Shown: piece by piece, positions 90 through 15,439 of the stretch
How positions within the stretch are numbered: position 1 is the first letter of the stretch
How the letters are laid out: each line of letters starts with the position of its first letter
Assembly: GCA_003697085.1 (NCBI GenBank)
Contig: RFFU01000036.1
Coordinates: forward strand, 1 to 15,439
DNA length: 15,439 nt
DNA from: Candidatus Hydrogenedentota bacterium
Lineage (GTDB): Bacteria; UBA8481; J006
Direction of reading: 5' to 3'
The notes under the pieces: model-generated
Databases searched by the model: none
What the model was told of the DNA's origin: nothing
The model's input: the letters and a program-made list of their open reading frames with translations, nothing else
Translations under genes and position numbers: made by a program

Positions 90-818
90 TCATCGATCCG
101 CCTCGATCCGGTAAATCGACGGCTTCTCCGCCGGGAAATAACGAGCGACCTTTCGCCCGTGTCCGGGAATCACAAACCAAAGTCCGGCCGCGTTCGCAAG
201 CATTCTCTCACGAATCCGTGTATTCGCGGCGGAATCGGCGGCGGTTCCCACGACGAGATTCCGAAAGAGGTTGTCGTAAACCATCACCTCGTCACCCGCA
301 AGCCAGACTTTTCCGACATCGGCCTCGACGGCGACAACCTGCGAACCCGGCGTATGACCGCCGGCGGGAATGAGCGAGACGCCGGAGGCGATCTCGGTTT
401 CCCCATCGACGAGGCGCAGGCGCCCCTCCCCGGCGATCTCTTCCAGAACCTCCAGCGTCTTCCGATCGACACCGTGAACGCGCTCCCGCTCGTTTTCGGC
501 AAATCCCGCGCGCGCCCATTCGTATTCCTTCCTCTGGAGCCAGACGCGCGCTTCCGAAAACCGTCCCACCGCGCCCGCGTGGTCCCAATGAAGATGCGTC
601 AAAACGAGGTCCGTCACCGCATCCCGCGGGACACCGATCTCCCTCAACAACGTCTCGACCCGCCGGAAATGCCGGATCCGCCACCGCCGCGCGTCCTTTC
701 GACGGAGAAATCCGCAATCAACGAGAATCGTCCGATCCGTGCCGCGAATCAACCATGCATACCATCCCGCGCGTTCTCTTCCCCTCTCCGCTCCGGCATA
801 GAGGTTCTTCCGAGCCAT
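90..818 (-). other. MBL-fold metallo-hydrolase module (242 aa) at the C-terminus of the 90..4088 ORF, with a candidate internal translation start (ATG 818..816) preceded by a GGAG/GAGG SD-like sequence
   Basis: The module begins MARKNLYAG. Minus-strand sequence GGAGAATCGAGG-ATG lies immediately upstream, in-frame, with no stop before it. HLHWDH at 579..596 is the lactonase/glyoxalase-II-type zinc motif. It may be translated both as a fusion and on its own. Confidence 0.5.
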
Positions 819-3800
819 CCTCGATTCTCCGTACTTCAGGGCAAGAACACGCCAGGCATTCCCGCCGGCCGGGCCGGAGCGTGGAGTGGTCGCGGAGGGA
901 AGGAGAACGCTGAGGAGAAGGAGCGCGGGAAGGCCGAACCCCAGTCCCACCCCCGCGCGGCGCATCGAAGCGGTTCCGCGGGAATCGAGAAAGAAGAGCA
1001 GAGCCACGAGAAGATAGAACCCGGCCGCCGCCGAGGCCATCGTCCTGAATCCGAGCATCACCGAAAGGTTCAAGGCCAAGGGCACCGCCAGAGCAGACGT
1101 AACTCCGTTGATCGCAAAGAGAATCGGAGTGTGACGCTCGTGCTCCCTCGCCTGCGCCGCGTGGAGAACGGCGGCGAAGGGTATCCCCATCAGGAAAGAA
1201 AGCGGGGCGAGAGCCGCGAGATTCACGGCGCTCCGGATTCCCGACGGCGAAGAGGAGAAGAATTCGAACACCGCGCCCGCGTAAGCAGGGAATCCGACGG
1301 CCAAAAGGAAGATCGCGGGAGGAACGAGGATCAAGATCGCGGGAGAGATGTGAGAAGCCAGCCGACTGCCCAACGAGGAAAACACAAGCATTCCGCCGAG
1401 AACGACAGCCAGCGAGACCGTTGGAGAGCCGAGAAAGCGTTCGCAGATCTGGAAGAGCGCGATCTCGATCAGAAGATAGGCCAGTCCGGTCAGAAGAGCA
1501 ATCGCCGAGAGAAGTCCCGCGGAAAAGTGTGTCTCCCTCGAAGAATTCCGCAGGCAAAGAGCAATCCCGACGGCGATCAGAAGAACGGCCGGAATCGCGA
1601 CGGGGAGGAGCGCCTCGCGGAGTTCCTTCCGGCTCGGATCGACGAAAAACGGAAACGGACGGTCGTCGGTCGCGGGAACGAGGTTGTAGCGCGCTCGGGT
1701 CGCCTCGCTCAAGCGTCCCTCGATGACTCGGGCGATCGTATTGTCCAGATTCGCTCCGGGAAAATAGAGCGGCGTGCAGACGGCCGTGTGGATCGGTCCC
1801 AGAGTCCCGCCCGCCGCTTTCTCCCGCTCCTTGATCCGATTCACGTCATCCAGCCATTTCCGAAACCGTGCGATCTCCGGTTCGGTCAAGGAACTCTTCT
1901 TCACGAGAATCTGGTAATACCGGTTCTTCCGCGTCGTCCACGAGAAGGCCAAAAGATGCCGTTCGGGCTCGGACACGCCGAGACGGACGAGCGCCTCCCG
2001 CAACGTCAAAAGCATCTTCCAGACGGGGGCTTCGCGGGAAGGACGGTTGACGGGCTCCTCGATCGAGAGAAATCCGCGATCCGTGAGATGTTCGAGAAGC
2101 GCCTTCCCCGCCTCGACCGTATGAAGATATTCCGGTGACGGAGACAATCCAGAGTATTTCCCGCGGGCGAAGTGCGTGTTGAGAAGCGTGATGAAGTCAT
2201 ACCGCTTTTCGGAGCGATCGAGAAATGTCCGACCGTCGATCATTTCCGTCTGAATATCGCCGAAGACGTGAAGGATCTTCCGGCCGAGTTTTCCGTTGAG
2301 AACACGCAAGACGGCCTCGTTGATCTCGACCCCCTCGACCTCGCCGCCGAGATTCACCGCTGTCTTCGTTACGCCTTCGCCGGAAAGTCCGATGATCAGA
2401 ACTGAAGGAGAATCGATTAGATTGTAGGGAAGTCGAGGATCGATGCGGTAGGCTTCTTTGCCCAGAATCCGCAACGTGTCGATCGTCCGACCGTTCTCCT
2501 TGAACTTGAAATAGATGCTTCCCCGTTCCCTCCAGACGACATCGATACGCCCCGCCAGGCTCGATGCCGAGGCGACGAGCGCTCCATTCGGGTAATCCTT
2601 AGCGTAGAGCGGACGCGTCACGGAAAGAAGACGGGTCCGTTGCTGCAATCCCAAGAGGAAAAGAAAGAGAAAGGAAAGCCAGAGATAAGCGCGCCGGAAA
2701 CGTTTTTCGTCTTCTCCAGCACCGTGCGCCGCCTCACCCGAGGAAGAGGCAGCCGCCATCCGAGTGAAGAGAAGGGGGAAAAAAGCAGCCAGAGACGCCA
2801 GAAAGAGGAAGGCCCCCTCTTCCTGCATGATGCGCACGATCGGATCAGCCAGCGCCGCACCCAGAGCCGCGCCGGCCAAGTCCGCGGCGTAGATGCGGGG
2901 ACCGTAAAACCGCCGGAGAAACGTCGTCGTGATGAAACCACAGAGGAGGAAGGGAGGAAGAAGAAAGAGAGCCGCGAGGTACGGATATTTTCCGGCTGCC
3001 GAGGCGGCACCCAGCGCGGCGGGCAAGAAGAACGGAAGAAGAAGGAACGCGGCACTCAGAAATTGCTCGCTTTCTCCTCCTGCCGGTGCCTTCGGAGGAA
3101 AGGCCGCCGCAAACGCACCGACACTGATTCCGAAGAGCGCGATCGCCACGGCGGAAGTCGCCGTAACGTAATCCGCCGAGACCATCAGGACTTGGAAGAG
3201 GACAAGCTCGAGATCGATGGCAAGGAACGCCGTCAGACCCGTGAGGAGAAGGATCCGCCTGGGAGGCTTCTCAACCGGTCGACACGATTCGAGCAATGAA
3301 GTCCCTTTCCCCGACGACGACTTCTCCGACTCCCGCGTTTCTTGCTCGGCGCCTTCCCGGGATCCGTTTTGAAGAAGTATCTCCGGAACCGCGACGCATC
3401 TCGAAAGACGAAGGGAAAAATCGACGAGATGGATCGCGGCGAAGAGGAGAATCTCCCCTTTTATGAGTGCGGGAAGGAGGTGGGTGTTTGCGATCCACGG
3501 CGGATAAAGATGGGTTATAAGCACAAGGAGAAGGAGTAAGAAAAGGGAGTTGTTTTCGTGTTTCGAAAAGCGATCCGGCAGGGCGGCGATGGCGCGCGAT
3601 GCGAGGCGATGGAGAATCCAAAGGGCTGCGGCGGAGAAGAGCAGAAGGTGATAGGGGCCGCGCAAGAGACCGATCGCGTCGAGCCGATGCCAGGAATCGA
3701 AGAGTGTCGTCGGAAAGAAACCGAGGCGGACCGACCAGCGGGAGAACTCCGAGAAGGAGAGAAGGAAGCACGCGGCGGCGGCAAGAGCGCATTCCGAGCG

Positions 3801-4088
3801 AAAACCGAGAACGTTCCGTACGGAAGAAGAGGAACCAGGGGGCGAATTCGAAGAATCGCCAGGGGAACACGCGTCATTGCCAGCGCGGTTCCGCGCGGCA
3901 AGAAAGAGGAGCCCGGCGGCGGCGAAGAGTGCGGAAATGACCCAGGATCCGAGGCTGAGCTGCCGGCCGAAATTGAAGTAGGAATGCCGTCCCTGTCCCC
4001 AACGATACTCGGGAAAGAGAAGATGCATCCCCCCCAGAAGAAAAGGTGTCATTCTTACAATTTGACACTTTCGGAACGAGCGCGTCAT
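90..4088 (-). CDS. Large polytopic membrane protein (1332 aa): TM block 1, spermidine-synthase-like (class I SAM-MTase fold) domain, TM block 2, C-terminal MBL-fold metallo-hydrolase domain. Resembles 'fused MFS/spermidine synthase' proteins but with an extra MBL module.
   Basis: Uninterrupted 1332-codon frame ending in TGA (92..90). Many hydrophobic helices in two blocks, aa ~40-450 and ~830-1065; each has an E-[LI]-x-L-F-Q helix (LELVLFQV at aa 293, IEIALFQI at aa 874). aa ~500-720 looks like spermidine synthase (VLIIGLSGEGVTKTAVNLGGEVEGVEINEAVLRV, DFITLLNTH) with GLSGEG in place of GGGDGG. The C-terminus carries the H-x-H-x-D-H metallo-beta-lactamase signature THLHWDHAG (nt 579..596) plus a downstream GGHTPGS and an HG pair. 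Start is ambiguous: in-frame ATGs at 4088, 4052 and 4028; the first two lie in a duplicated start-region repeat. Confidence 0.7.
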   Translation of the reverse strand: MTRSFRKCQIVRMTPFLLGGMHLLFPEYRWGQGRHSYFNFGRQLSLGSWVISALFAAAGLLFLAARNRAGNDACSPGDSSNSPPGSSSSVRNVLGFRSECALAAAACFLLSFSEFSRWSVRLGFFPTTLFDSWHRLDAIGLLRGPYHLLLFSAAALWILHRLASRAIAALPDRFSKHENNSLFLLLLLVLITHLYPPWIANTHLLPALIKGEILLFAAIHLVDFSLRLSRCVAVPEILLQNGSREGAEQETRESEKSSSGKGTSLLESCRPVEKPPRRILLLTGLTAFLAIDLELVLFQVLMVSADYVTATSAVAIALFGISVGAFAAAFPPKAPAGGESEQFLSAAFLLLPFFLPAALGAASAAGKYPYLAALFLLPPFLLCGFITTTFLRRFYGPRIYAADLAGAALGAALADPIVRIMQEEGAFLFLASLAAFFPLLFTRMAAASSSGEAAHGAGEDEKRFRRAYLWLSFLFLFLLGLQQRTRLLSVTRPLYAKDYPNGALVASASSLAGRIDVVWRERGSIYFKFKENGRTIDTLRILGKEAYRIDPRLPYNLIDSPSVLIIGLSGEGVTKTAVNLGGEVEGVEINEAVLRVLNGKLGRKILHVFGDIQTEMIDGRTFLDRSEKRYDFITLLNTHFARGKYSGLSPSPEYLHTVEAGKALLEHLTDRGFLSIEEPVNRPSREAPVWKMLLTLREALVRLGVSEPERHLLAFSWTTRKNRYYQILVKKSSLTEPEIARFRKWLDDVNRIKEREKAAGGTLGPIHTAVCTPLYFPGANLDNTIARVIEGRLSEATRARYNLVPATDDRPFPFFVDPSRKELREALLPVAIPAVLLIAVGIALCLRNSSRETHFSAGLLSAIALLTGLAYLLIEIALFQICERFLGSPTVSLAVVLGGMLVFSSLGSRLASHISPAILILVPPAIFLLAVGFPAYAGAVFEFFSSSPSGIRSAVNLAALAPLSFLMGIPFAAVLHAAQAREHERHTPILFAINGVTSALAVPLALNLSVMLGFRTMASAAAGFYLLVALLFFLDSRGTASMRRAGVGLGFGLPALLLLSVLLPSATTPRSGPAGGNAWRVLALKYGESRMARKNLYAGAERGRERAGWYAWLIRGTDRTILVDCGFLRRKDARRWRIRHFRRVETLLREIGVPRDAVTDLVLTHLHWDHAGAVGRFSEARVWLQRKEYEWARAGFAENERERVHGVDRKTLEVLEEIAGEGRLRLVDGETEIASGVSLIPAGGHTPGSQVVAVEADVGKVWLAGDEVMVYDNLFRNLVVGTAADSAANTRIRERMLANAAGLWFVIPGHGRKVARYFPAEKPSIYRIEADR

Positions 4089-4119
4089 TCCCTCATTTTT
4101 TCAGTTTCGGAACGGGGAG
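4048..4119 (-). repeat. Degenerate tandem duplication (2 x 36 bp, 25/36 identical) spanning the translation start of the membrane-protein gene; each unit ends in ATGAC on the minus strand
   Basis: Plus strand 4048-4083 is gtcattcttacaatttgacactttcggaacgagcgc and 4084-4119 is gtcattccctcattttttcagtttcggaacggggag. The cores gtcattc and tttcggaacg are perfectly conserved. The units give in-frame ATGs at 4088 and 4052, 12 codons apart, each 15-16 nt downstream of a GTTCCGAAA(G/C) motif. Confidence 0.5.
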
Positions 4120-4300
4120 ACAAAAGAAATCAGACCACGGAAAGCGCGAAATGACACGGAAAAAGAGAAAGGCAAAAGTCAGAAGGAAAAAGGAAAAGGG
4201 GAAGAAAAATGAAACGGGTGCCGAGAGAAGGAACTCTGGCAGGAAGCCATCGGAGAGAAGGGAAAAGGGGGGGTAAAGAAAAGGGAGGCGGGGGTTTGAC
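4110..4300. repeat. Polypurine (plus strand) / polypyrimidine (minus strand) low-complexity tract, ~190 bp and ~85% A+G on plus, inside the 334-bp spacer between gene D and the membrane-protein gene
   Basis: Counted directly: 4141-4200 has 8/60 pyrimidines and 4201-4260 has about 14/60. Runs of GGA/GAA/AAG. It generates the spurious K/R/E-rich plus ORFs (4046..4276, 4209..4478) and the F/L/P/S-rich minus ORFs (4093..4302 and others). Confidence 0.7.
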
Positions 4301-4422
4301 ACTGGGACACTTTGTCGTAGAGGGGAAACCGAGCAAAGCCCGCCTGCCTACCGGCGGCCAAGGCCCTAATCCCTGTCATTCCGAGGAGGTCGGAGGCGGC
4401 GAAGGCCGTAGCCGAAAGCGGA

Positions 4423-5199
4423 TCAGAAAAGATGGAGGAAATCGTGGACGAAGATCATTGGCGCCGGGAGTCCATTGATATTGACCACGGCGACGGAGAG
4501 GATCTCAAGGTTCTTTCCGGCGCCTTCCTTCAAAGAATGGTACTCCGTCTCAAGGATTTTCATTTGACGCGCGGCATGTTCCCGGGCCATTACGAGTAGG
4601 CGAACGTTCTCGGGGATCTTGGCGATTCGTTCACGATCCGGTTTTTTCCACTGTTCCTCGACATCCTCGAGAAACTCGTTGCCTTCCTTTCCTTCGAGCA
4701 CGGCGTTCAGTGCTCCGCAACAATCTGACTCACGAGTATAGCGCATCAACACGCCGAATCGCGATTCGGCCGAGGGGTCCTCGAAGGAGTTCCACTCGGG
4801 AAGGTACATGCGGTCCGTTACCCGGAGGGGGAGAATGACACCACAGTGCGACTGGATCCAGACGATCAGCAATAACGGCCTTCCGCGGTCGAAGTGATCG
4901 ACGGCCAGGTCAAGTATCCCGGCGGGAAAGACAGCGCCAGGCGTGGAGACGATCATCGGAGAGCGTTTCCCATCCGGAAGAGGGCGAAGAGACCGCGCGA
5001 TTTCCAGTACTCGGTCAAGCAAGCGGGCTCGACGAAAGAGATTCACAGTTTCCCTGGGATTTCGTTTCATCCGTTCCGGGGCGTCCTTCAGCTGCTCTTC
5101 GAGAAAGGCAAGGTCTTCCTTGTCGGGAAGGGAATCGGGATCAAACGCTGCGGCGGCCAATTCCGTCGCCTTCTTGATCCTGTTCCAGAATTCAGCCAT
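4423..5199 (-). CDS. Hypothetical protein, 258 aa (gene D of the AAA_5 cassette); no recognisable motif
   Basis: Start ATG at 5199..5197 is preceded by a near-perfect SD GGAGGAGGTGA (5205..5215 on plus coordinates) with a 5-nt spacer. Stop is TGA (4425..4423). The track's upstream GTG extension MSLLILEEVIP was rejected in favour of the SD-supported MAEFWNRIKK start. Ordinary amino-acid composition, unlike the antisense frames. Confidence 0.7.
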   Translation of the reverse strand: MAEFWNRIKKATELAAAAFDPDSLPDKEDLAFLEEQLKDAPERMKRNPRETVNLFRRARLLDRVLEIARSLRPLPDGKRSPMIVSTPGAVFPAGILDLAVDHFDRGRPLLLIVWIQSHCGVILPLRVTDRMYLPEWNSFEDPSAESRFGVLMRYTRESDCCGALNAVLEGKEGNEFLEDVEEQWKKPDRERIAKIPENVRLLVMAREHAARQMKILETEYHSLKEGAGKNLEILSVAVVNINGLPAPMIFVHDFLHLF

Positions 5200-8101
5200 C
5201 GGAATCACCTCCTCCAGGATCAAGAGTGACACGGAGTACGGAATACGCCGCGAACCGTTCGTGCGGATTCACGATCGTAAACGGCAGTTCCTCGATCACG
5301 GTTTCCTTCAACCCGCGATTCGTAATCACGCCCCACGTGATCCTCAAAAGCGCCTCGTTGGACGAGAGAACGCGGAATTCCACCTCCTCCGCCTCATGCT
5401 CCACCCCTTGCGCCTGTTTGTCCTCCAGCACGGTGCGATTATCGACCTTCTGACCGTCATACATGATGACCGGATGGTCCTCGTCGTGAATGTAAATGTA
5501 GGCGCCTTTCTGAAACCCGTATCCTCGAATCCGATACTCGCGCGGTTCAAACTCTCTCGTCTGTCCGAGAGGAATAAGGAGACGATCCTCATATTCTCCG
5601 ACGAATTCCGGCATCCCATCCGCGTCTTCATCGCGGGGCAAATCGGGCGGCTTCGTTACGGCCGCTTCGAAGCCACCAGGCCGCTTTTCTTCCGTTCTTT
5701 TCCCACTCGTGGAATCCGCCGTGCCAACCGAGGCTGGGGGAGGGATCACGACGACGGCCGGCTTAATCTGCACCGAGGAGAAGGCCTTTTTGAGGCGTTC
5801 GAGCGTTTCCTCCGGCAATGTCATCTCGACACGGGAGTCCGCGCCTTCTCTGCTCCGCTCCTCCTCCCGGGCCCTTCGTTCTTCCTCGAGCCTCCGCGCC
5901 CGCGTCTCCAACTCCTCGCGCCTCTTCCTCTCCTCCTTCTCCCTCCGGCTTCGTTCTTCCCTCTCCCAGTCCGCGCGCCGATCGAACCATTCCTTAAGGC
6001 TCTCCAAACCCCCGCCGATCGTTTCTCCGATCGCGTCGAGCCCTTCTTTGAAAGAGGCCAGATGAACCGCGACCCGGCCGACGGGATCACTCTCGTCCGT
6101 TTTGGCAAAGAGAAGATTCCGCCAAAAGGTCTTTTTGATCTCTTCCCATCGTTCCTTCTCCGTCTCAGTCAATGTCCCGCAGAGTTCCTTGAACTTCAAA
6201 AGATTCGCCTCGGCTCCGGTTGTCAAGGTCTGAGCCTCATTTCGGTAATGTTCGTCCAGCAGCGCTCGAATCTCCTCCTCGTTCATCACCGGAAGGACGC
6301 GTTCCGCCAGGCGGTTCATATTCCTGTACGATCCCTGGAGTTTGAACGGAGGCTCGGTTCGATACTCGTCAGCCTGGGCGGCGGAGGCAATGTATTCCTG
6401 ATTGACCCGAAGGACGATATCGCGAATCCGCAAGAGGCGCTTCATCACCTCGACCATCTCATTGAGTTCCTCGGGCGCGTACTGGCCTTCGAAGGCGCTG
6501 GAATCGACCGCCCCTCCTTCGGCCATGCGGATAATCGCGATCACATCCCCGCGGCTTCGCTGCGCCAAGCGGGAAAGGATCGGATTCGAGGTGACGGCGT
6601 TCTCGAGGTAGCTCCGGCGAAAGGCCTCCGCATTGGCACTGACGATGTCGCCGAGGTTGTAGGTATCAGCGCGGTTCGCCAGCATATCCGGAATCACGAA
6701 CTTTTTGCCGCTTTCGGTGTACGGATTGCCGGCCATGACGACCATAACCTTCCGGCCGCGCAAGTCGTAGGTTCGGGTCTTCCCTTGAAAGACTCCTTCG
6801 ATCCGCCGTTGAGCGTCGCAAAGGGATATGAACTTCTGGAGAAATTCGGAATTCGTGTGCTGAATATCATCGACGTAAAGCATTACATTGTCGCCCATTT
6901 CGAGCGCGAGGTTGGCCTTTTCGATCTCTTCCCGCGCCGCCGCATTCAGCGCCTCGGCGGGATCGAGCGAAGTTACGGCGTGGCCGAGCGCCGGTCCGTT
7001 GATCTTCATAAAGGTCATCCCCAACCTGTTCGCCACATACTCCATCAACGTCGTCTTCCCATACCCCGGTGGGGAAATCAGCAGAAGCAATCCCAGCCGA
7101 TCGGTCCGTTTTGCGTCCCCCGCTGCGCCGATCTGCTTCGCCATATTGGCCCCGATCAAAGGCAAATAATGTTCGTCGATCAACTGGTTCCGTACGAATG
7201 TCGTCAGAACCCGCGGTTTGAATTCGTCGAGGCGGAGTTCCTCGCGCTTCCGAGCGAGGCATTCCTTCTTTCTGGCAAGGTATTCTCGAAACGCCGGAAC
7301 AGCCTCTCGTTCGAATCGTTCCAGTTTCTCCATAAAGGAAAGATAGTCGAGACGATACGTTCCCTGCCGGATCACGGGATGGGAACCGACCATTCCCTTC
7401 ACGAGTGCCGTGAAGGAGACCGTTCCCTCATCCGTTCCATCACCGAAACCCGGATCTCTTTTTCCCGCATCCTCGTAAAGAAGCATCACGCCGGCCTCGT
7501 CGAGAAAACGGTAATCCAGTGGAACGATTCTCTCTTGTCCCCCAGACACTTCCTCCCTCCCCTCTTTCCTCGCGGTCGGATCATGTTCTGCGGCGACGGG
7601 ATATTCGTTCTCGATCCCGGAGCCGCCTTCACGGCGTCTTTCGGAGGCGAAAAGCGCCAGCCAGTCGCGAATCACGTCCCATTCGGCACGCCGATCGCCC
7701 GCCACGGCTTCGCGAGCCGCGGCGAAGGCCTCCTCCGCACCGCGCTCCCGAAGGTCCTCGTAAAAGATTCGCACGATCTCTTTCGCCGGTCGGCTCGACA
7801 GAAATCTCTCCCCGCTCGAAAGCACCTCAAAGAGGTACTCCGCCGTCTTCTCCGCATCGGCGGGATCGAACCATCCTCCGTTCTCCGCGAAATTCTTGAT
7901 CCGCTTCCACAGTTCCCGGATATAACGCTCCTTTCGTGGTTCAACAGCGAAGGTTCGCTCGGCCCTTCCCGCACTCGTAATTCTGGCCTCCAGCGACGGT
8001 TTCGCTTCCGAATCCTGCCATTCGTTCCAGAAAATCCGGGCCGCAGCGCGGACACGCGGAGCAAACCTGAAGAGACCAATCGTCCGATGAATCCGTGCCA
8101 A
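5192..8101 (-). CDS. Large AAA+ ATPase of the AAA_5 (MoxR/dynein-related) type, 969 aa, with a ~330-aa N-terminal extension, an ER-rich helical linker and a C-terminal domain of unknown function (gene C)
   Basis: Walker A LLLISPPGYGKTTLMEYV (GYGKTT codons at 7049..7066). Walker B VMLYVDDIQ (about 6860..6886). Sensor region VVMAGNPYTESGKKFVIPDMLANRADTYNL matches the MoxR/AAA_5 pattern NP..E.G...[IL]P.A.L.R. Charged linker DRRADWEREERSRREKEERKRREELETRARRLEEERRAREEER at 5831..5986. Stop TGA at 5194..5192. The track's start is TTG 8101 with no SD and no internal ATG for 200 codons, so the exact start is uncertain. Confidence 0.85.
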   Translation of the reverse strand: MARIHRTIGLFRFAPRVRAAARIFWNEWQDSEAKPSLEARITSAGRAERTFAVEPRKERYIRELWKRIKNFAENGGWFDPADAEKTAEYLFEVLSSGERFLSSRPAKEIVRIFYEDLRERGAEEAFAAAREAVAGDRRAEWDVIRDWLALFASERRREGGSGIENEYPVAAEHDPTARKEGREEVSGGQERIVPLDYRFLDEAGVMLLYEDAGKRDPGFGDGTDEGTVSFTALVKGMVGSHPVIRQGTYRLDYLSFMEKLERFEREAVPAFREYLARKKECLARKREELRLDEFKPRVLTTFVRNQLIDEHYLPLIGANMAKQIGAAGDAKRTDRLGLLLLISPPGYGKTTLMEYVANRLGMTFMKINGPALGHAVTSLDPAEALNAAAREEIEKANLALEMGDNVMLYVDDIQHTNSEFLQKFISLCDAQRRIEGVFQGKTRTYDLRGRKVMVVMAGNPYTESGKKFVIPDMLANRADTYNLGDIVSANAEAFRRSYLENAVTSNPILSRLAQRSRGDVIAIIRMAEGGAVDSSAFEGQYAPEELNEMVEVMKRLLRIRDIVLRVNQEYIASAAQADEYRTEPPFKLQGSYRNMNRLAERVLPVMNEEEIRALLDEHYRNEAQTLTTGAEANLLKFKELCGTLTETEKERWEEIKKTFWRNLLFAKTDESDPVGRVAVHLASFKEGLDAIGETIGGGLESLKEWFDRRADWEREERSRREKEERKRREELETRARRLEEERRAREEERSREGADSRVEMTLPEETLERLKKAFSSVQIKPAVVVIPPPASVGTADSTSGKRTEEKRPGGFEAAVTKPPDLPRDEDADGMPEFVGEYEDRLLIPLGQTREFEPREYRIRGYGFQKGAYIYIHDEDHPVIMYDGQKVDNRTVLEDKQAQGVEHEAEEVEFRVLSSNEALLRITWGVITNRGLKETVIEELPFTIVNPHERFAAYSVLRVTLDPGGGDSDG
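5200..5215 (-). promoter_or_regulatory. Shine-Dalgarno GGAGGAGGUGA for gene D, embedded in the last codons of the ATPase gene; the genes are 8-nt coupled (ATGGCTGA, start of D overlapping stop of C)
   Basis: Minus strand reads GGA GGA GGT GAT TCC GAT GGC TGA, which encodes the ATPase C-terminus G-G-G-D-S-D-G-stop. ATG is at 5199..5197 and TGA at 5194..5192. Confidence 0.8.
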
Positions 8102-8150
8102 GGGTTCAAGGATCGCGGCCGCATCGAGATCGTGGACGCCTTTGACGTAT

Positions 8151-8158
8151 CCCTCCTT
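8151..8158 (-). promoter_or_regulatory. Strong SD-like AAGGAGGG directly after the gene B stop codon, with no canonical start codon 4-12 nt downstream
   Basis: Minus strand reads ...CGC TAG AAG GAG GGA TAC GTC AAA GGC.... The next in-frame canonical start is TTG at 8101, about 50 nt away. Confidence 0.4.
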
Positions 8159-9634
8159 CTACCGCGGCGTGGCGAAAGCCCGCATCCAGTCCAAACGCTC
8201 CTCCGGCGTCTTCTCGAGGAACTCCGCCACACCTCCCTCCCCTTCCTCGAGCGCCTTCAAGGCGCAAGCGGCGAGATATTCCGCACGATAGATTTCCTCG
8301 TTCTCCGAAAGCACTTCCTGCTTCCAGACCGGCCGCGTCGCGAGGAATTCCGGATCGCTCACCTTTTCGAAATACCGTATTCCCGTGAGGTGGTAATACA
8401 TCTCTCCGTCACGCTCAACCATCGTGCAATCGAGGGGCTGGGTGTTGACAGAGAAACGATATTTTCCGAAGCGAATGATCTTTTCGCCATCCTCGTAAAG
8501 TTCCCGCGCATCGCGGAGTTGGCGCACCGTTTCTTGCTGGAGCGTCTTGAGACGACCGAGGAGATCGTCAGCTTTAACGGAATCACCGAGCGCCTGGAGT
8601 TGTTCCACGAGGTCGCGGACCTTAGCGACCATCCTATCCGATGCGTACCAGGCGTTGAGGTCCTCGAGCGTCCTGAAGGCGGAGGCGCGCGACCGGATGC
8701 CATTGAGAACCCGTTCGGCGGCGGCGTAGAGCGCCTGCGCCCGCCTGTTCCGTTCCTCGACGAGCCGAACCTTACGAGAGGTGAAAGCGGAGGAAATCTC
8801 CTCGCGCTTCTCGACCATCGTTCCGATGAACTCGTCAAAGTCGGCGAACCTCCCCTCCATCTCCTCCAACTGAAGCATAACCTTCGTGAGATTCTCGTCG
8901 CATTTTTCAGGGGTATCGCTGAGGTCGAGGTAATTGGCAACGGATTGGTTGAGGAGTTTCACCTGCGCATTAAAATGGGCGGTGCCCTCCACGCGCGACA
9001 GATCCTTCCGCCGGTTCTTCAAGAGGGCCTTGACCTGGTTGAGGCGCGCGTAGATCGCGGAGATGTCATCGATAATCCGCGTCGCCTCCGTGGCATCCTC
9101 GATCTCGAGATTCCCGACGATCTCGATCAGCATCTCCAACTGAGCCGCGGTCTCCGTAATCCGTTTCTCCAGAGCGTCCGCCTCCGTCACCTTCCCCACT
9201 GCCTCGAGCTCCTTCTTCGCCTCTTCCACACGAGTCGCATACGGATCGAGCGCGCCGTCGGAAAGAAGAAAGGCGACGCATTTTCGGGAAAGATTGTCGG
9301 TCTCTTCGCGGACGCGTTCCTCCAGAGTATCGAGCAGGGCGAGATCGACGTAGCGTAGTTCGCGCGCCGAGATAATCGCCCCCCGGCAGCCGCGCAAGGC
9401 CGCCAAGCGTTCAACAAACACGTCTATCGCCTCGAACGATCCCCGCCGCGCCTCCTCCAACACCTCCTCCGTCCGCCGCTCGATCTCCGCCACGCGATCC
9501 GCCGTCTCCTTCCGAATTCGTCGCACCTTCTCAAACTCCTCGATCGCCGCGCGGGCTGTGTCTCGAATCGCTTCCAACGGCTCTCGAACCCGGAAGGCTC
9601 CGTCCTCCCCCAGCCAAAAGTAGGCGTCAATCAC
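8159..9634 (-). CDS. Hypothetical coiled-coil-rich protein, 491 aa (gene B)
   Basis: Long E/R/K/A/L heptad-like stretches, which suggests a helical or coiled-coil protein. GTG start at 9634 has no SD and lies 27 nt after the gene A stop, so translational coupling is possible. Stop TAG at 8161..8159. It is in the same frame as gene C. Confidence 0.65.
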   Translation of the reverse strand: MIDAYFWLGEDGAFRVREPLEAIRDTARAAIEEFEKVRRIRKETADRVAEIERRTEEVLEEARRGSFEAIDVFVERLAALRGCRGAIISARELRYVDLALLDTLEERVREETDNLSRKCVAFLLSDGALDPYATRVEEAKKELEAVGKVTEADALEKRITETAAQLEMLIEIVGNLEIEDATEATRIIDDISAIYARLNQVKALLKNRRKDLSRVEGTAHFNAQVKLLNQSVANYLDLSDTPEKCDENLTKVMLQLEEMEGRFADFDEFIGTMVEKREEISSAFTSRKVRLVEERNRRAQALYAAAERVLNGIRSRASAFRTLEDLNAWYASDRMVAKVRDLVEQLQALGDSVKADDLLGRLKTLQQETVRQLRDARELYEDGEKIIRFGKYRFSVNTQPLDCTMVERDGEMYYHLTGIRYFEKVSDPEFLATRPVWKQEVLSENEEIYRAEYLAACALKALEEGEGGVAEFLEKTPEERLDWMRAFATPR

Positions 9635-9660
9635 ACCGGTGGGAGACGCACGAGATCAAA

Positions 9661-10965
9661 TTAGAGGTTGGCGTAGGTGTCCTCTTTTTCGATCAGGTTC
9701 AGAACATCGTGACAATCGGCCAAACATCCGACCACAGCCGGATTGCTGATCTTGTAGAGGTAGGAATCCGTCTTTTCCTCCAGCACAACGTTCGGACCGA
9801 CGTACGGAGTCCGCCAGACCTGGAGCAGGTGATGTTTCCGCGGCTCATTTTCGCCCTTGAAGAGAACCATCTCCCCAGTATCAAAAAGCGTGAAACCGTT
9901 GCACACGATGGGCGTCTCCAGCCTCTGTTCGACTCGGTTGTACGAAAGAAGGACATAGACCCCCGAGGCGCGATTGTAGAAGACGCAGAGGAAATCCTCG
10001 CCGTTCCGCGCCTCGATCCGGCGAGAATACACCATCCCCGACAGCTCATCCTCGAATACCTTGTGCTCGCCTGTCTGGAGATAGTATCTGTTGTGAAAGA
10101 TGATCCCCCGCCCGTCCGGCAAGAGAACACAGGACTCGCCGATTTGATCGATCCGCTGGACCTCCTGGAGTTTCTCGTTGAAAACGAGGTACCGAAACTC
10201 CTTCTCTTGAAAAGGACGAATCTTCATCAGGATGAGATGCCCGAGGATGGCGTAGTAGATTTCGGCGTCGTCGAGCGTCTGATCGGGATCCAAAACGGGT
10301 TCGGAATAGATTCCTTCGCCGGTCTCCGTATTGTCTTCCACCTTGACCGTCAGGTCTCCTCCGACCGTTTCGACGAAGACACGATCTTCAATCGAGATGT
10401 GCGGATGGGTGCCGTAACGGTGAAAATCGCGAATCACGCGCTTCCATTCAAACTCGTGCGGCGGGGGGAAGTGATACTCGTGATCAAAGCGGTTGCCGAG
10501 ATAGCGAATTCCTTCCTCCGTCACCGCCCACTTGAAGCACTTGAGGTCATCGATGTCCCTTCCCACTTGAAAAGCCATATAGAGAAAATCGTCCATCCGA
10601 CGAAAATCCGAAAAGACCGTCTCTCGATAATACTTATAGAGTTCGGCGAAATCGCGTCCAAATTCCGGATCACAAATCGGATCCAGGTCCCGCGGCACGA
10701 ATTTCCGATCCGCGAATTCGTACACGGCGAAGACATCTTCCAATTTCACCTCCCGCTTCAGGCCCATTCTCACGTTATAACCGAAGAGAAAACGGTCCCC
10801 TCCAAGAAGCACCATATCGCGTGGACTACAGTTGTACTTGGTGGTAATGCGTTCGGTCGAGACGAGGGCGAATTCGATCGAGCCGAAGACGCGCTTGCGC
10901 TCCGCATTGAGCCGTTCGACGCGGCGGCGCAATTCCGCCCCGTGTTCGAGAAGCCGTTTCCGCAA
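9661..10965 (-). CDS. Hypothetical protein, 434 aa, beta-rich C-terminal half (gene A); possible N-terminal extension to ATG 11209 if a frameshift sits at the G8 tract
   Basis: Open frame with ordinary composition and no recognisable catalytic motif. The annotated start TTG 10965 lacks an SD. The frame is open upstream to 11115 and reads ...TPEGIEAGTYEILRKRLLEHG..., which looks protein-like. Stop TAA at 9663..9661. Confidence 0.65.
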   Translation of the reverse strand: MRKRLLEHGAELRRRVERLNAERKRVFGSIEFALVSTERITTKYNCSPRDMVLLGGDRFLFGYNVRMGLKREVKLEDVFAVYEFADRKFVPRDLDPICDPEFGRDFAELYKYYRETVFSDFRRMDDFLYMAFQVGRDIDDLKCFKWAVTEEGIRYLGNRFDHEYHFPPPHEFEWKRVIRDFHRYGTHPHISIEDRVFVETVGGDLTVKVEDNTETGEGIYSEPVLDPDQTLDDAEIYYAILGHLILMKIRPFQEKEFRYLVFNEKLQEVQRIDQIGESCVLLPDGRGIIFHNRYYLQTGEHKVFEDELSGMVYSRRIEARNGEDFLCVFYNRASGVYVLLSYNRVEQRLETPIVCNGFTLFDTGEMVLFKGENEPRKHHLLQVWRTPYVGPNVVLEEKTDSYLYKISNPAVVGCLADCHDVLNLIEKEDTYANL

Positions 10966-11088
10966 AATTTCGTATGTTCCCGCCTCGATCCCCTCGGGAG
11001 TTGCGGGCCCTGGTCCCGCTTCCGACCCCGCCCCCTCCTCGCCGGCGTCGCGCTGAACGGGAAGCCTCGTGGAAACGCTTGACGCAGG

Positions 11089-11096
11089 CCCCCCCC
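11089..11096 (-). repeat. C8 (plus strand) / G8 (minus strand) homopolymer at the junction of two overlapping minus-strand frames
   Basis: ggcc-cccccc-gaac. The frame starting at ATG 11209 (MAEEKEMADRSEPAG...) and the gene A frame differ by +1 across this run. Confidence 0.6.
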
Positions 11097-11224
11097 GAAC
11101 CAGGGCTCTCTCCGGCTAACCCGTCTCCCGCCCCGGCCGGGCCGGTCTTGGAAGTCGAGGTATTTCCGGCGGGTTCGGACCGGTCCGCCATCTCTTTCTC
11201 TTCAGCCATCTTCCGGGCGCGTTT

Positions 11225-11254: not shown

Positions 11255-13273
11255 CTAGGCCTCGGCCCCCCCAAGGAACTCGCCGACGATCTCGGAACCG
11301 ATCCCGGCCTTCTCGGCGTGCTCCGCAAGCGTCTTCAAACCGGCTCGAACGTCGTCCGAATCAGCCAAGGCCGTCAGTTTCGCCAAAGCAGCGGCGACGC
11401 TGAGGTTCTTGAGGTCGGCCGTGGAAAGGCCGAACTGATCGCACCACTTCCGGATCTGGCGGCGAAAGTATCCGGGGTCGGAGCGGAAGAAGGTTCCCTT
11501 GATGTCTCCCAGGACGCGGCTGCTTCCAACAGTGCGGTCCACCGCCTTGCCCGCCGTGATGGCGTTGACGATCTTGTCGAAGAAGGCCGTCTCGCCGCCG
11601 ACGATATCGACCTTGGCGTTCTTGAGCGCTTCGGCCACGACGGCCGCCTGCGCTTCGGCGATGTCCTTCCGGATCTGGATTTCGGCCAAGGCGATTTCCT
11701 TCTCGATGTTCGCGCGGATCTTGAACTCCTCGTGTTCGCGGCCTGATTCATTGAAGAGTTTCATCGCTTCGGCCTTCTTCGTGATCCCGTCCGCGTCCGC
11801 CTCGAACTTCAAGCGCATCACCGTGGCTTCGGCCGTTCCCTGTTTTTCGGTCGCAACAGCTTTGGCCTCGAGAACTTGCGCCTCGGCCAGTCCCGGCGCG
11901 GCGGTCTCGGCCGTGATCCCCTCCGCCAGGGCCTTTTTTTCGGCAGCAAGCTTCACGTTCGCGTTCTGCTCTCCTTCCGCTTCGATGACCTTCTTCTGCG
12001 CGATAAGTTCGGCGGCGCGGCGCTGCGCTTCCGCGGCCTTGACCTGTTTCACCAACTCCTGTTCCGCATCCGCCTTCGCAAGCGTAATCGCGACCTTCTT
12101 CTCACGTTCCGCCGTCGCGAACTCCTCCGTATCCTTCACCCTCTGCTCCTCCGCCACGACCTCCTTCTGCACCGCCACTCTCTGGCGTATCACTTCCTGA
12201 ATGTTCTTTTTCTCGATCTCGACAGCCTTCTGCTTCTCAATGTCATTCAGGGTCACGACCTTCTCGCGCTCAATATCCTCCAGCTGGCGTTCCTTCTGAA
12301 CGCGAACCTGCTCGACCGCGTCCGTCCGCTCTTTGTTCCGCTGCGCCACAATGATCTGGTGGAGTTTGTTCTGCTCGGCCACCTGCACCTCTTCCTCCGT
12401 CGCGATGCGTGACTTTTCCGCCTTCAGGCGTTCCTCCTGTTAAATCCGAATTGTTTCCGCTTCCTCGCGCGCCTTGATCGCCGCCACCTCGCGCTTCTGT
12501 TTCTCCTCCGCTTCCGCCAACTGGCGATTTTGCTCCAAGATCATCTCACGCGTCTCGACATTCTTTTTGTTGATGTCGCGTTCTTTGTTCCGCTGGAATT
12601 CGTTCGTCAACACGGCCTGCGCCGCCGTCCGCTCGGTTATCAACTTGATCCCTTCCGCATCGAGAACATTTTCGGGATCGAGGTCCTCGATCTTGGTCTG
12701 TTCGAGAAGGTCGATCGCGGCATCGTCGAGGATATAGCCATTGAGGTCGGTTCCGACGGCCTTGAGGATCGCTTCACGAAAGGCCTTCCGCTTGTTCAGA
12801 AGATCCTCGAAGTTAAACTCACGCCCCGCCGTCTTCAGTGCATCCGAAAACTTCGGCTCGAAGAGTTCCGAAAGAACCTGGGGATCCGAGGCACGCTGGC
12901 ATCCGATCGTCTGCGCCACATGCTTGATCATCTCTTGATCCTCGCTCTCCACCCGGACGTAAAAGGTGACCTGAATGTCCGCTCGAAGGCTATCGCGACA
13001 GATCAACCCCGTCGGCCCGTGACGGTGAATCACGACTTCCTTGACGGAGATATCCATTACCTCCAGGCGATGGACGATCGGAAGTACAAAAATGCCGCCG
13101 GCCGTGGCAACCTTGATCCCGCCCAGCCCCGTGCGTACCAGGGCCTGTCCCTGACGGGGGATTCGTTAAGTCCACCCGACGATAAGACGAATGATTCCAT
13201 AGAGGACGGTAAAAAGAACAAGCCCTCCAAAGAGATACCCGACAATCGACAATACGGATAGAAATGCACCCAT
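11255..13273 (-). pseudogene. Flotillin-family (SPFH/band-7) gene interrupted by two in-frame TAA codons (13168..13166 and 12442..12440); the frame is otherwise intact over 672 codons
   Basis: N-terminal membrane anchor MGAFLSVLSIVGYLFGGLVLFTVLYGIIRLIVGWT, then TAA. Next comes RIPRQGQALVRTGLGGIKVATAGGIFVLPIVHRLEV-MDISVKEVV..., which matches the flotillin/FloT pattern (GPDEALIVTG...GGGTFVLP), followed by SPFH-domain sequence (ADIQVTFYVRV...). Then TAA, then a long EA-rich flotillin-type C-terminal region (QEERLKAEKSRIATEEEVQVAEQNKLHQIIVAQRNKE...AEAQRRAAELIAQKK...) ending in TAG at 11257..11255. Strong SD GGGAGGGG at 13279..13286, 5 nt before the ATG at 13273. All three segments share frame (top coordinate = 1 mod 3), verified codon by codon. 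Confidence 0.75.
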
Positions 13274-13573
13274 CGATACCCCTCCCAAAAGAGAAAATCT
13301 TTTTCTAAATCACATCGCAGCGCAACGGTAACATCGTGCCGTTTTCCCGGCACCCCCTTTCCTCGAATTCGGATGCGTGGCGAAAAAGGATACCTTTTGC
13401 CGGATCGGGTCGGTCAACTCTTGGGCGAAACCCCGCATCGGATCGGGGCGGCCGAAAGGTGATCCTCTACGAAGCCGTTTTTTCAGACCTGCCTACGAGA
13501 AGACCCAGACGGAGCGCCATTGCTGAGAGTGCTGGTTCTCCAACCTGCGGAGGGCGGTTCGGTGCTTCGCAGA

Positions 13574-13658
13574 CTAGAAGCGGTTTCATAAGGCTCCCTT
13601 CCTCCTTGATAATGCAGGAGTTCCGAGGCCGTAACGGTACTTATGAAACCGCTTCTAG
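13574..13658. repeat. Perfect 19-bp inverted repeat (ctagaagcggtttcataag / cttatgaaaccgcttctag) with a 47-nt spacer that itself holds a small ctcct/aggag hairpin; lies in the flotillin-adhesin divergent non-coding region
   Basis: Arms at 13574-13592 and 13640-13658 are exact reverse complements. They do not extend past the arms. Confidence 0.75.
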
Positions 13659-13731
13659 AGAGTCTAGGCTCCATCGTGGAACGGAGATGGTGCGCGTGGG
13701 AGATTCCTCGTCAGCCTCCGGCCTCCTCGGA

Positions 13732-13771
13732 ATGACACCAGGGGGGGAGCGAAGCGACACCCTGGTGTCAT
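13732..13771. other. Stable GC-rich hairpin: 13-bp stem (atgacaccagggg / cccctggtgtcat) with a 14-nt loop gggagcgaagcgac; no adjacent U-tract
   Basis: Arms at 13732-13744 and 13759-13771 are exact complements. Confidence 0.65.
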
Positions 13772-14092
13772 CTCGAGTTCGCCGCAAAACGAACGAGGAA
13801 TCCCCTCCCCACGGTATCCCGAGCGAAGGGCAACGGCAAGGGCAAGAAAAAGGGAATAAGAAACCTGTCCTGAGGGCGCATGCCTGCCTACCCGCGGCCG
13901 GACATCTTGCCTGCGGATGGTGGTCCACAGCGCGGCGGGTGAGCGCGGACTCTCCAGTCCGCGGGCAGAAGTGTGCCCTCCGGGCCGGCTTCGAGCCGCA
14001 GCGGATCCGAATCACCCGTCCGAGAGCGGAAGTGTGTGTTCTCTCATTTTCTCCGTGTCGCCACCTCCCTGCCGAATTTTGTGCACATCGGT

Positions 14093-14125
14093 TCCAGTCT
14101 TAAACATTAATTTCCAATAATTCCT
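14093..14125 (+). promoter_or_regulatory. AT-rich island in otherwise GC-rich DNA, 75-105 bp upstream of the adhesin-like gene; candidate promoter (AATAAT -10-like at 14116-14121; weak -35)
   Basis: cagtcttaaacattaatttccaataattcc. The composition is anomalous locally, but no good sigma-70 -35/-10 pair with 17-bp spacing is present. Confidence 0.25.
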
Positions 14126-14197
14126 CTCCGCCATCCCGCCGATGAAATAACCCTACTCATCGAAACAGACCAGGAACGTGCAGGAGGAGAGGTTTTC

Positions 14198-15439
14198 GTG
14201 TCAGAGAAAGGGGATTGTCACCCGCCGCGATTTATCGGGGCCCTTTTTCGGACACGAGAACTACGCCTGCTTCTCTTCTTCGGGGGCCTTCTCTTTGGAA
14301 CTCATCCCGCGGTGAGGGCCGAGGTTCGGTCCCACGTATTGTGGCCTCCCCCGGGAGCGATCGTGAATGACACCGTCGTCGTCCGCTGGACGGCGACCTA
14401 CTCCGGCGGCGACGTGGGAGGCGACACGCGCTTCGGAGTCCTGAGGAATTTCGAAAACATCGACGGGATCAAGGCCTCGGGCAATCCGCCGGGCGGAGAC
14501 CCGCCGCCGGACAGCACCGTTCCCGTAACCGGCCCGGGCAGCACCCATCTCTGGAACACGCGCGAGGTTCCGGACGGCATCTGGCATCCAAACATCTTCA
14601 TTCGGGAAGGTAATGCCGCCGGAGACGACTACGACGGCGATACGGAGGGCCCGGAAGTTCTCGTGGACAACACGCCGCCGTGGATCACGGAGATGGATCT
14701 CACCGGTTGGGACGGATTACCGTTCGTGCAGGGGAAACCCGGGGACACGGCGCGGATCGAGGCGCGGGTCGCGGCTCAGGGCGCGCCCCTGGATACGACG
14801 AGCGTTCTTCTGACGCTTCCCAACGGGACGACGATGTTGATGGGAGACACGGGGAACTACGGGGATCGCTTCGCCAATGATTCGGTCTTCACGGCGATCT
14901 TCACGCTCTCCGACTCTCCAACGGGAACCTATCAGATCACGGTCACGGTGCGGGACACCTTTCCCACGATGCCTGTTTCGAACATTCGTACGGCCTCCGA
15001 AGGATTCTTTCTCGACAACGACACGGCGACGATTCTTTACATCACAACGACCGACCCGGACACGATCTACCGAAACGGGCAAACGATCACCTTTCAAGTC
15101 TTCGCGGACACGAACGCCTCCGGGCCCGGCGAGAGCGGTTTGACCGTTACAGCGAACTTTCTCAATGTCGATGACCGGTACATCCAAAACGCCGAGGTCT
15201 TCTCGGACGACGGAAGCGGCACGTATACCGTCCGCTACACGATCTCCCTGAACAACACTCTTCCCAACGGCAACGACAGCCGCATCATCGTGCGGGTTGA
15301 GGACGCCGTCGGAAATTTCGACACGGAGATCTGGCTCGTTTCGCTCGACAACTCCGGCCCCACGATGGATTCGCTCGTCATCTCCGATCTCCAGATCGGA
15401 ACCGATTCGGCCTTCGACCAATTGTTGAACGACAACGAC
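14198..15439 (+). CDS. Secreted surface/adhesin-like protein with tandem Ig/cadherin-like beta-sandwich repeats (partial; runs off the 3' end of the window)
   Basis: This frame (start coordinate = 2 mod 3) is open from 14111 to the window end and is absent from the ORF track because it has no stop. GTG start at 14198 follows SD AGGAGGAGAGG (14182..14192) with a 5-nt spacer. Signal-peptide-like N-terminus RTRELRLLLFFGGLLFGTHPAVRA-EV. Repeated boundary motifs VDNTPPWI, LDNDTATI, LDNSGPTM. T/S/D/N-rich strands (GTYQITVTVRD, GTYTVRYTISL) are typical of bacterial Ig-like/cadherin-like adhesin domains. Confidence 0.75.
   Translation, partial: MSEKGDCHPPRFIGALFRTRELRLLLFFGGLLFGTHPAVRAEVRSHVLWPPPGAIVNDTVVVRWTATYSGGDVGGDTRFGVLRNFENIDGIKASGNPPGGDPPPDSTVPVTGPGSTHLWNTREVPDGIWHPNIFIREGNAAGDDYDGDTEGPEVLVDNTPPWITEMDLTGWDGLPFVQGKPGDTARIEARVAAQGAPLDTTSVLLTLPNGTTMLMGDTGNYGDRFANDSVFTAIFTLSDSPTGTYQITVTVRDTFPTMPVSNIRTASEGFFLDNDTATILYITTTDPDTIYRNGQTITFQVFADTNASGPGESGLTVTANFLNVDDRYIQNAEVFSDDGSGTYTVRYTISLNNTLPNGNDSRIIVRVEDAVGNFDTEIWLVSLDNSGPTMDSLVISDLQIGTDSAFDQLLNDND

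Follow-up and report, generated by a model that had tools for sequence, protein, structure and literature searches.

A probably inactivated copy of a flotillin-linked propeller, coiled-coil and AAA+ ATPase operon in a Candidatus Hydrogenedentota genome

The stretch of DNA analyzed here, referred to as the window, is the whole 15,439-bp contig RFFU01000036.1 from a Candidatus Hydrogenedentota metagenome-assembled genome (MAG). A preliminary description had singled out four open reading frames (ORFs) in it, designated A, B, C, and D, as an uncharacterized four-gene cassette built around a MoxR-type ATPase, with a flotillin gene upstream and a membrane-protein gene downstream. All four ORFs were recovered in the same direction on the minus strand, and both flanking genes, the flotillin-like gene upstream and a gene for a 1332-aa membrane/metallo-beta-lactamase protein downstream, are present. 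The 57-nt spacing between B and C was reproduced, as was the 8-nt overlap between C and D (ATGGCTGA), while the interval between A and B is 26 nt rather than the 27 nt given before. The ORF regions are coding, with very strong homologues far beyond what chance would produce. The cassette itself did not hold up: as described below, A, B, and C are pieces of one gene, and nearly all relatives of this gene consist of just one ORF.

To place the window among related loci, one genome per species was scanned, which yielded at least 593 loci, of which 80 were kept for comparison. A, B, and C lie in one frame in 71 of 73 of these loci, and a single long ORF is found in 76 of 78. A tblastn search of the window with a homologue of 1676 aa (P0080) gave matches that run colinearly through A, B, and C, and the ATPase of the related locus L082 matches residues 3-1926 in a single frame at 56% identity; full-length identity to homologues is 50-59%. 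The assertion that A and B resemble nothing recognizable is contradicted by Pfam, which identifies A as DUF3686 (PF12458; E=7.9e-173, residues 11-433 of A) and finds DUF7902 (PF25472; E=1.1e-29) within B. Read from its ATG (11207-11209) to its TGA (5192-5194), the gene is interrupted by two frameshifts and two stop codons. When intact, it would encode a protein of about 1,900 aa. In this protein, an N-terminal helix would be followed by the DUF3686 beta-propeller, the DUF7902 coiled-coil, a helical domain, and the MoxR-like AAA+ module, with a tail at the end. The NCBI annotation places a 764-aa "ATP-binding protein" (P0001) within C.

The interruptions can be followed along the gene from its 5' end. 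The true start (MAEEKEM...) is in a different frame from A and matches the VAEEKQN start of L082, whereas the first start codon in the frame of A itself, a TTG at 10965, falls inside the conserved GTYEIL motif, with family-invariant residues also encoded upstream of it. The change of frame between the true ATG and the DUF3686 region takes place at a run of eight G residues (C8 on the plus strand), a tract that could be either a slip-strand site or an error hotspot. At the A/B junction, the window reads YANL-TAA-FDLVR where homologues read YANLYxDLVK, and the TAA aligns to a Tyr in 72 of 73 related loci, the codon being TAC in L002. Just past this stop, one base is missing compared with homologues, such that FDLVR in the frame of A passes into SPTGVIDAYFWL in the frame of B, which is gapless when set against LDIVKRSGDLLDAYFWL; the same SPTGVIDAYFWL aligns without a gap to the homologue segment RSGDLLDAYFWL. 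B and C share a frame and are separated by one TAG, with PR-TAG-KEGYVKGVHD in the window and PRYxEGYxKGVHD in homologues; this TAG aligns to Tyr in 73 of 79 loci, and the codon is TAC in L082. The 57 nt between B and C encode KEGYVKGVHDLDAAAILEP, including four family-invariant residues. The "tiny gaps" of the preliminary description are therefore not spacers but conserved coding sequence that contains a TAA and a frameshift in one case and a TAG in the other. Additionally, the GTG of B and the TTG of C lack a usable Shine-Dalgarno sequence, while both D and the flotillin gene have one. Given the colinearity with single-ORF homologues and the position of the stops at conserved Tyr residues, this comparison shows that A, B, and C are not separate genes but the three pieces of one giant ATPase gene. 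The copy in the window has the domain content of the DUF3686-DUF7902-AAA family and lacks its single uninterrupted ORF; judged by its sequence, it is a member of the family, but a disrupted one.

The flotillin gene directly upstream, on the same strand, encodes a transmembrane segment, a Band-7 domain, and a coiled-coil, and it is interrupted as well. It forms one frame that ends at a TAG terminator (11255-11257) and contains two in-frame TAA codons (13166-13168 and 12440-12442), and its product shows 71% identity, across 669 aa, with the flotillin of L082, which is intact at 678 aa. In L082, the two stops align to a Tyr (VGWTYRIP; 13166-13168) and a Gln (RVQQEER; 12440-12442), respectively, although for the stop at position 35, the broad alignment is ambiguous (Arg/Lys or Tyr), and Tyr is assigned by the closest relative, L082. 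The features of the window are collected in Table 1.

Table 1. Features of the window, with positions counted from the first nucleotide of the contig
Feature	Position	Strand	Size, evidence, or remark
Giant beta-propeller/coiled-coil/AAA+ ATPase gene	5192-11209	-	colinear with single-ORF homologues
ORF A	9661-10965	-	434 aa
ORF B	8159-9634	-	491 aa
ORF C	5192-8101	-	969 aa
Frameshift 1, G8 homopolymer	11089-11096	-	three-frame translation
Segment A: N-terminal long helix, then beta-propeller-like DUF3686	9661-11088	-	
In-frame TAA at conserved Tyr (ANL-Y-xDLVK)	9661-9663	-	alignment of related loci
Frameshift 2, one base missing compared with homologues	9644-9648	-	15 bases past the TAA
Segment B: coiled-coil/helical with DUF7902, then beta-rich region	8159-9646	-	PF25472, colinearity
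In-frame TAG at conserved Tyr (PR-Y-xEGYxKGVHD)	8159-8161	-	alignment of related loci
AAA+ module of C	6362-7114	-	Walker A, Walker B, and sensor-1 positions
C-terminal ATPase tail domain	5195-5614	-	about 140 aa; L002, L082, and L084 only
Flotillin (SPFH/Band-7, YqiK/FloT-like)	11255-13273	-	Pfam Band_7 on N-terminal piece
ORF D	4423-5199	-	258 aa counted from ATG
Membrane/metallo-beta-lactamase gene	90-4088	-	intact 1332-aa ORF
ORF running off the contig end	14111-15439	+	signal-peptide-like start, Thr/Asp/Asn/Gly-rich, weak MG2 match

The ATPase belongs to a large family. With C as the query, more than 6,000 relatives were retrieved from databases, typically a single protein of 1,650-1,700 aa with DUF3686, DUF7902, and AAA domains, and the lengths of single-protein members span about 1,650-1,900 aa. 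The name carried by the family in RefSeq and at NCBI, "DNA repair ATPase", is without support in any result obtained here. The kept loci come from Verrucomicrobiota, Planctomycetota, Bacteroidota, Desulfobacterota, Kiritimatiellota, Hydrogenedentales, and one Firmicute, and the family as a whole ranges over bacteria of the Planctomycetota-Verrucomicrobiota-Chlamydiota (PVC) group, Bacteroidota, Desulfobacterota, Proteobacteria, and the megaplasmid pQBR103. It was found in none of 50,697 phage records and in 13 of 72,556 plasmid records, mostly megaplasmids or chromids. In the Hydrogenedentales relative L035, the ATPase ORF is intact. Broken copies were also encountered: in L085, a pilon-polished long-read contig, the flotillin is in two pieces and the ATPase in three (1456-9615), L064 has a frameshift, and in L068 a 506-aa ORF is inserted between B and C. 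Many of the "short" family members in protein databases are likely to be artefacts or truncations at contig ends.

A flotillin gene is a recurrent neighbor of the family: among the 57 loci whose flanks are long enough, 54 have one immediately upstream in the same orientation, at a median distance of about 200 nt. In 40 of the about 55 flotillin-bearing loci, the flotillin is in turn preceded by a gene for a protein of about 224 aa with the Pfam domain YqiJ_N; a profile hidden Markov model (HMM) built from these 40 YqiJ-like neighbors found no counterpart in the window. Some loci add PspA (E=5.5e-41), a phospholipase D (PLD)-like hydrolase (E=2e-31), or a separate classical AAA protein, and polyamine genes sometimes accompany the flotillin-ATPase set. 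The membrane-protein gene downstream, for which a similar recurrence had been considered, adjoins the ATPase gene in none of the 80 loci. An intact module, accompanied by polyamine-related genes, is carried by L086, which is the Pseudomonas fluorescens SBW25 megaplasmid pQBR103 (NC_009444.1, 87947-105335), in the order DUF1190, a glutathionylspermidine-synthase-like gene, a hypothetical (YqiJ-like) gene, SPFH, and a "DNA repair ATPase" of 1748 aa.

Six lesions were counted in the window, two frameshifts and two nonsense codons in the ATPase gene and two nonsense codons in the flotillin gene. All six fall within the 7.9-kb flotillin-ATPase stretch and none in the 4.8 kb made up of the 1332-aa gene and D; there is no in-frame stop in the 1332-aa gene, in D, or in the plus-strand ORF at the contig end. 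We consider it probable that the flotillin-ATPase operon has been recently inactivated by pseudogenization and that the window carries a dead copy. A Logan assembly of SRR7905022 (Jinata hot spring) contains a contig, L001, that covers positions 653-6495 of the window with six substitutions and no indels, and this agreement over 5.8 kb speaks for accurate reads. The differences lie within 4416-5910 and comprise L731S, M880V, and L960P in the ATPase tail, H256Y in D, one intergenic change, and one synonymous change, which may be read as strain-level variation and as a hint of relaxed constraint. Several observations weigh against inactivation. L001 ends at position 6495 and reaches no lesion, and look-ups of A, B, P0001, and the Luteolibacter luteus protein P0116 in the contig index gave no match, leaving no second assembly across the lesions. 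The ATPase is otherwise not visibly decayed, deviating at 9 of the 327 columns that are conserved at 95% or more, which ranks it 11th of 69; given such conservation outside the lesions, the inactivation would have to be recent, or the lesions would have to be errors. Frameshift 1 sits at a run of eight G residues, where errors are prone to occur, and the clustering of the lesions in the operon is only weakly significant (about 0.06 under a uniform rate). Moreover, three of the four stops replace a Tyr, compared with 11-16% expected of single-base routes to a stop (post hoc P about 0.005-0.015), and plain decay does not predict this excess. The mechanism that we propose below for the intact protein is drawn only from gene neighborhood and fold analogy.

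The same observations bear on the alternatives. If the lesions were consensus errors of the MAG, arising for example from chimeric strains or homopolymer miscalls, then the organism would possess an intact flotillin gene and a single intact ATPase gene. This is consistent with the otherwise good conservation of the gene, with the frameshift in the G8 tract, with the chopped state of both genes in the error-prone long-read locus L085, and with two further split cases among 78 loci, but four stop-creating substitutions would be unusual for such data, the neighboring 4-kb ORF is free of lesions, and the second, short-read-style assembly agrees with the window over its whole overlap; we therefore regard a sequencing or assembly artefact as unlikely. 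Considerably less probable is a genuine gene fission, in which A, B, and C would be separate subunits that assemble into the same machine. The breaks do lie close to the ends of domains, the first behind the propeller and the second behind the coiled-coil region, and P0116, a RefSeq protein of 1255 aa from the complete genome of L. luteus, starts about 20 residues before the A/B break, implying that this junction may tolerate splitting. However, fission would leave invariant residues in untranslated segments, B and C have no ribosome-binding sites, the first start of A truncates a conserved motif, the flotillin gene contains two stops as well, and the ATPase has the fused form in 71 of 73 loci.

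The excess of Tyr codons among the stops raises the question of programmed read-through or partial recoding, in which a suppressor or near-cognate tRNA would insert an amino acid, usually Tyr, at TAA and TAG, and full-length proteins would still be produced. Of the four in-frame stops, three are at a conserved Tyr and the fourth is at a Gln, and near-cognate decoding of UAA and UAG would insert just these two residues. Yet the sample is four sites examined post hoc, the two frameshifts in the ATPase gene are beyond rescue by read-through, the flotillin gene genuinely terminates at a TAG, the window contains no tRNA, and the ORF of the Hydrogenedentales relative L035 is intact. Recoding to Tyr as the principal explanation was rejected on account of the frameshifts, the flotillin terminator, and the absence of in-frame stops in the neighboring genes, and we see very little likelihood for read-through or partial recoding. 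The same very slight likelihood attaches to a more elaborate version, in which read-through of TAA and TAG at former Tyr and Gln codons by a suppressor or near-cognate tRNA in this Hydrogenedentota lineage would be combined with an on/off switch of the ATPase by strand slippage at the G8 tract to give a conditional, contingency-like membrane-stress module; if this were true, read-through would give a low-level or regulated supply of flotillin and ATPase, and the operon would not be a pseudogene. The explanation to which we give the least credence is an anti-phage defense system based on an NTPase. Large multi-domain ATPases with coiled-coil partners are common in defense islands, and weak PADLOC matches were obtained for B to LmuB (E=1e-5) and for C to IetA (2e-3), but these cover just the coiled-coil and the P-loop, and no component has a meaningful full-length match in PADLOC. 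The conserved neighbors (flotillin, YqiJ, PspA, PLD, and polyamine genes) are not defense genes, the ATPase is missing from the phage records and rare on plasmids, and there is no nuclease or other effector domain. The preference of the preliminary description for a membrane role over DNA-targeting defense is supported by the recurrent flotillin, the lack of phage copies, the small number of plasmid copies, and the PADLOC result.

In the AAA+ module of C, the Walker A motif GYGKTT is encoded at 7049-7066 and the Walker B DD at 6866-6871, the codon for the sensor-1 Asn starts at 6727, and that for a putative arginine finger (ANRAD) starts at 6673. The motifs GYGKTT, VDDIQ, and NP..G..IPDMLANRAD, on which the ATPase had been recognized from the outset, are present and invariant across the family, and the family-invariant SPPGYGKTT, DDIQH, AGNPY, and IPDMLANRAD are all kept in the window copy. 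A structural model of the C core, with a predicted local distance difference test (pLDDT) score of 84, has a helical N-domain followed by an AAA+ alpha/beta core and a lid. Foldseek matched this model to RuvB, CbbQ, and NorQ at about 1e-6, and the predicted AAA+ fold is nearest to MoxR, midasin, and dynein modules. A hairpin is predicted between alpha3 and beta4 (model residues 452-465), with no helix-2 hairpin by DSSP. In sequence, C scores 29.4 bits with AAA_5 (cut-off 22) and 34 bits with PF00004. The assignment of the core to the MoxR/AAA_5 class is therefore supported by the fold but unclear in sequence, where PF00004 ranks slightly above AAA_5. The modeled A segment, corresponding to the DUF3686 domain, is propeller-like. 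As had been stated, no von Willebrand factor A (vWA), nuclease, or protease domain is found in A-D, and a vWA/metal-ion-dependent adhesion site (MIDAS) partner had no match in A-D or among the recurrent neighbors. Sequence searches of the PDB gave only P-loop matches for the ATPase and none for D or the D-family profile.

Gene D had been counted among the partners of the ATPase. It is not a general partner, since a gene of this kind comes after the ATPase gene in no more than a small sub-clade. In L002, L082, and L084, D-like genes of 526-562 aa sit directly after the ATPase gene, 4-20 nt downstream, and the region resembling D is their C-terminal half. The ATPases of these same three loci share the extra tail domain of the window copy, which follows a Glu/Arg-rich linker, is homologous in no others (33-39% identity), and has no Pfam match. 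The sub-clade loci (L082, 168-9581; L002, 43-7245; L084, 1-5683) have an intact flotillin and an ATPase of about 1,900 aa with the tail. In the window, D is preceded by a strong Shine-Dalgarno sequence (GGAGGAGG) and begins with an ATG that shares nucleotides with the stop codon of the ATPase gene. A word-index search with D returned only D itself, while an exhaustive HMMER search returned 11 relatives. The D family is rare and has a conserved Cys..His..His..Cys pattern; D is short and divergent and lacks the N-terminal HVTCxDEAE motif of the family, which is its first Cys motif. Sub-threshold matches to LCIB_C_CA, the LCIB beta-carbonic-anhydrase domain, were seen in 3 of 13 D-family members, the best relative reaching 20.7 bits against a cut-off of 25, and D itself had no match. 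Short proteins resembling D are encoded in unrelated settings as well, one example being beside a CMD-family gene. These results indicate that D is a real accessory gene restricted to a sub-clade, that it is N-terminally truncated in the window, and that it probably pairs with the sub-clade-specific tail of the ATPase.

The 1332-aa protein encoded downstream of D combines a polytopic membrane region with a metallo-beta-lactamase domain at its C-terminus, the latter with a weak similarity to acyl-homoserine lactone (AHL) lactonases (AiiA/AidB) that is far below the cut-off. Its middle part has no Pfam match, and the idea that this part might resemble a spermidine synthase, as found in PspA-linked operons, was dropped for want of HMM support. 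On the other side of the operon, about 900 nt between the flotillin gene and the plus-strand ORF (13274-14250) are without a convincing gene, and the plus-strand ORF, which is divergent from the flotillin gene, probably encodes a secreted or surface protein. A 1471-aa ORF on the plus strand opposite B and C (4943-9358) is not a gene but a shadow ORF that reflects the GC-rich coding strand; shadow ORFs of a similar kind misled naive ORF picking in L002 and L021. Scans of the window for tRNAs and Rfam families were empty, and a scan for promoters and terminators gave background levels only.

The operon to which the window copy belongs has been described in silico. Ravi et al. 2024 (mSystems, PMC11237479) delineated a module of YqiJ/YuaF, a Band-7/flotillin protein, and a protein with a propeller, a coiled-coil, and an AAA+ domain, listed in their supplementary table as "Betapropeller+Coiled-coil+AAA-ATPase"; some versions also include a CesT/Tir-PspA pair or a phospholipase D, and shortened forms of the module occur widely. 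Our neighborhood analysis reproduces this description: the architecture is the same, flotillin lies directly upstream, often with YqiJ, and the occasional partners are again PspA, phospholipase D, and glutathionylspermidine-synthase-like genes. The window copy differs from the published operon in that it is broken and without a YqiJ gene, and genes for PspA and CesT/Tir are likewise missing from its surroundings; Ravi et al. 2024 (PMC11237479) mention neither its extra C-terminal tail nor the D-like gene. Earlier, Hinderhofer et al. 2009 (PMC2636767) had described the NfeD-SPFH2 core, without the ATPase, for Escherichia coli yqiJK and Bacillus subtilis yuaFG/floT. In the E. coli yqiJK and B. 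subtilis yuaFG operons, as in the present family, an NfeD-like gene is followed by an SPFH2 flotillin in the same order, but the giant ATPase is absent as a third gene. A literature search found no experimental work on the family. The window thus probably carries a disrupted copy of a known but experimentally uncharacterized module from a widespread family.

Comparison with better-known AAA+ proteins provides some indication of what the intact protein might do. Relative to MoxR-class AAA+ proteins (NorQ, CbbQ, RavA; AAA_5), the window protein is five to six times larger, has no vWA/MIDAS partner, carries its propeller and coiled-coil adaptor fused in cis, and has DD rather than DE in Walker B. 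In its genetic pairing of an SPFH membrane scaffold with an AAA+ machine, the operon resembles HflK/C-FtsH and the prohibitin-m-AAA protease pair, and by analogy with these systems, the ATPase may act at or within the flotillin assembly. Unlike in these pairs, there is no protease domain, the ATPase has no transmembrane segment, and the scaffold is an SPFH2 flotillin rather than HflK/C.

Starting from the architecture, neighborhood, and folds described above, we infer oligomerization, an interaction with flotillin, and a physiological role along the following lines. The AAA+ modules would oligomerize into a ring, with the propeller and coiled-coil serving as a built-in adaptor, a function that classical MoxR systems leave to a separate vWA protein. 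The energy of ATP hydrolysis would then go into building, remodeling, or taking apart scaffolds of flotillin (and possibly PspA) or their client proteins. This activity may take place at the membrane, on its cytoplasmic side, when the envelope is under stress, following a logic akin to that of HflK/C-FtsH or ESCRT-III-Vps4. Based on the near-obligate operon with flotillin and YqiJ, the occasional PspA, PLD, and polyamine genes, the MoxR-like ring module, and the fused adaptor, the most likely role of the intact protein, by analogy, would be that of an ATP-driven remodeler or assembly factor for membrane scaffolds of flotillin, and possibly PspA, or for their clients.

The preliminary description had put forward a novel NTPase-driven system, a view that is not compatible with a family that has more than 6,000 relatives, two Pfam entries, a RefSeq name, and a published operon (PMC11237479). 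As a disrupted copy of such a family, the window locus in itself matters little. The sub-clade tail domain and the downstream D-like gene, whose Cys/His motif may bind metal, constitute a small new point, and the module on pQBR103 is tractable for experiments. The family, in turn, is large, widespread, and tightly coupled to flotillin, and it could represent the missing energy-consuming partner in the assembly or remodeling of flotillin/PspA membrane scaffolds.

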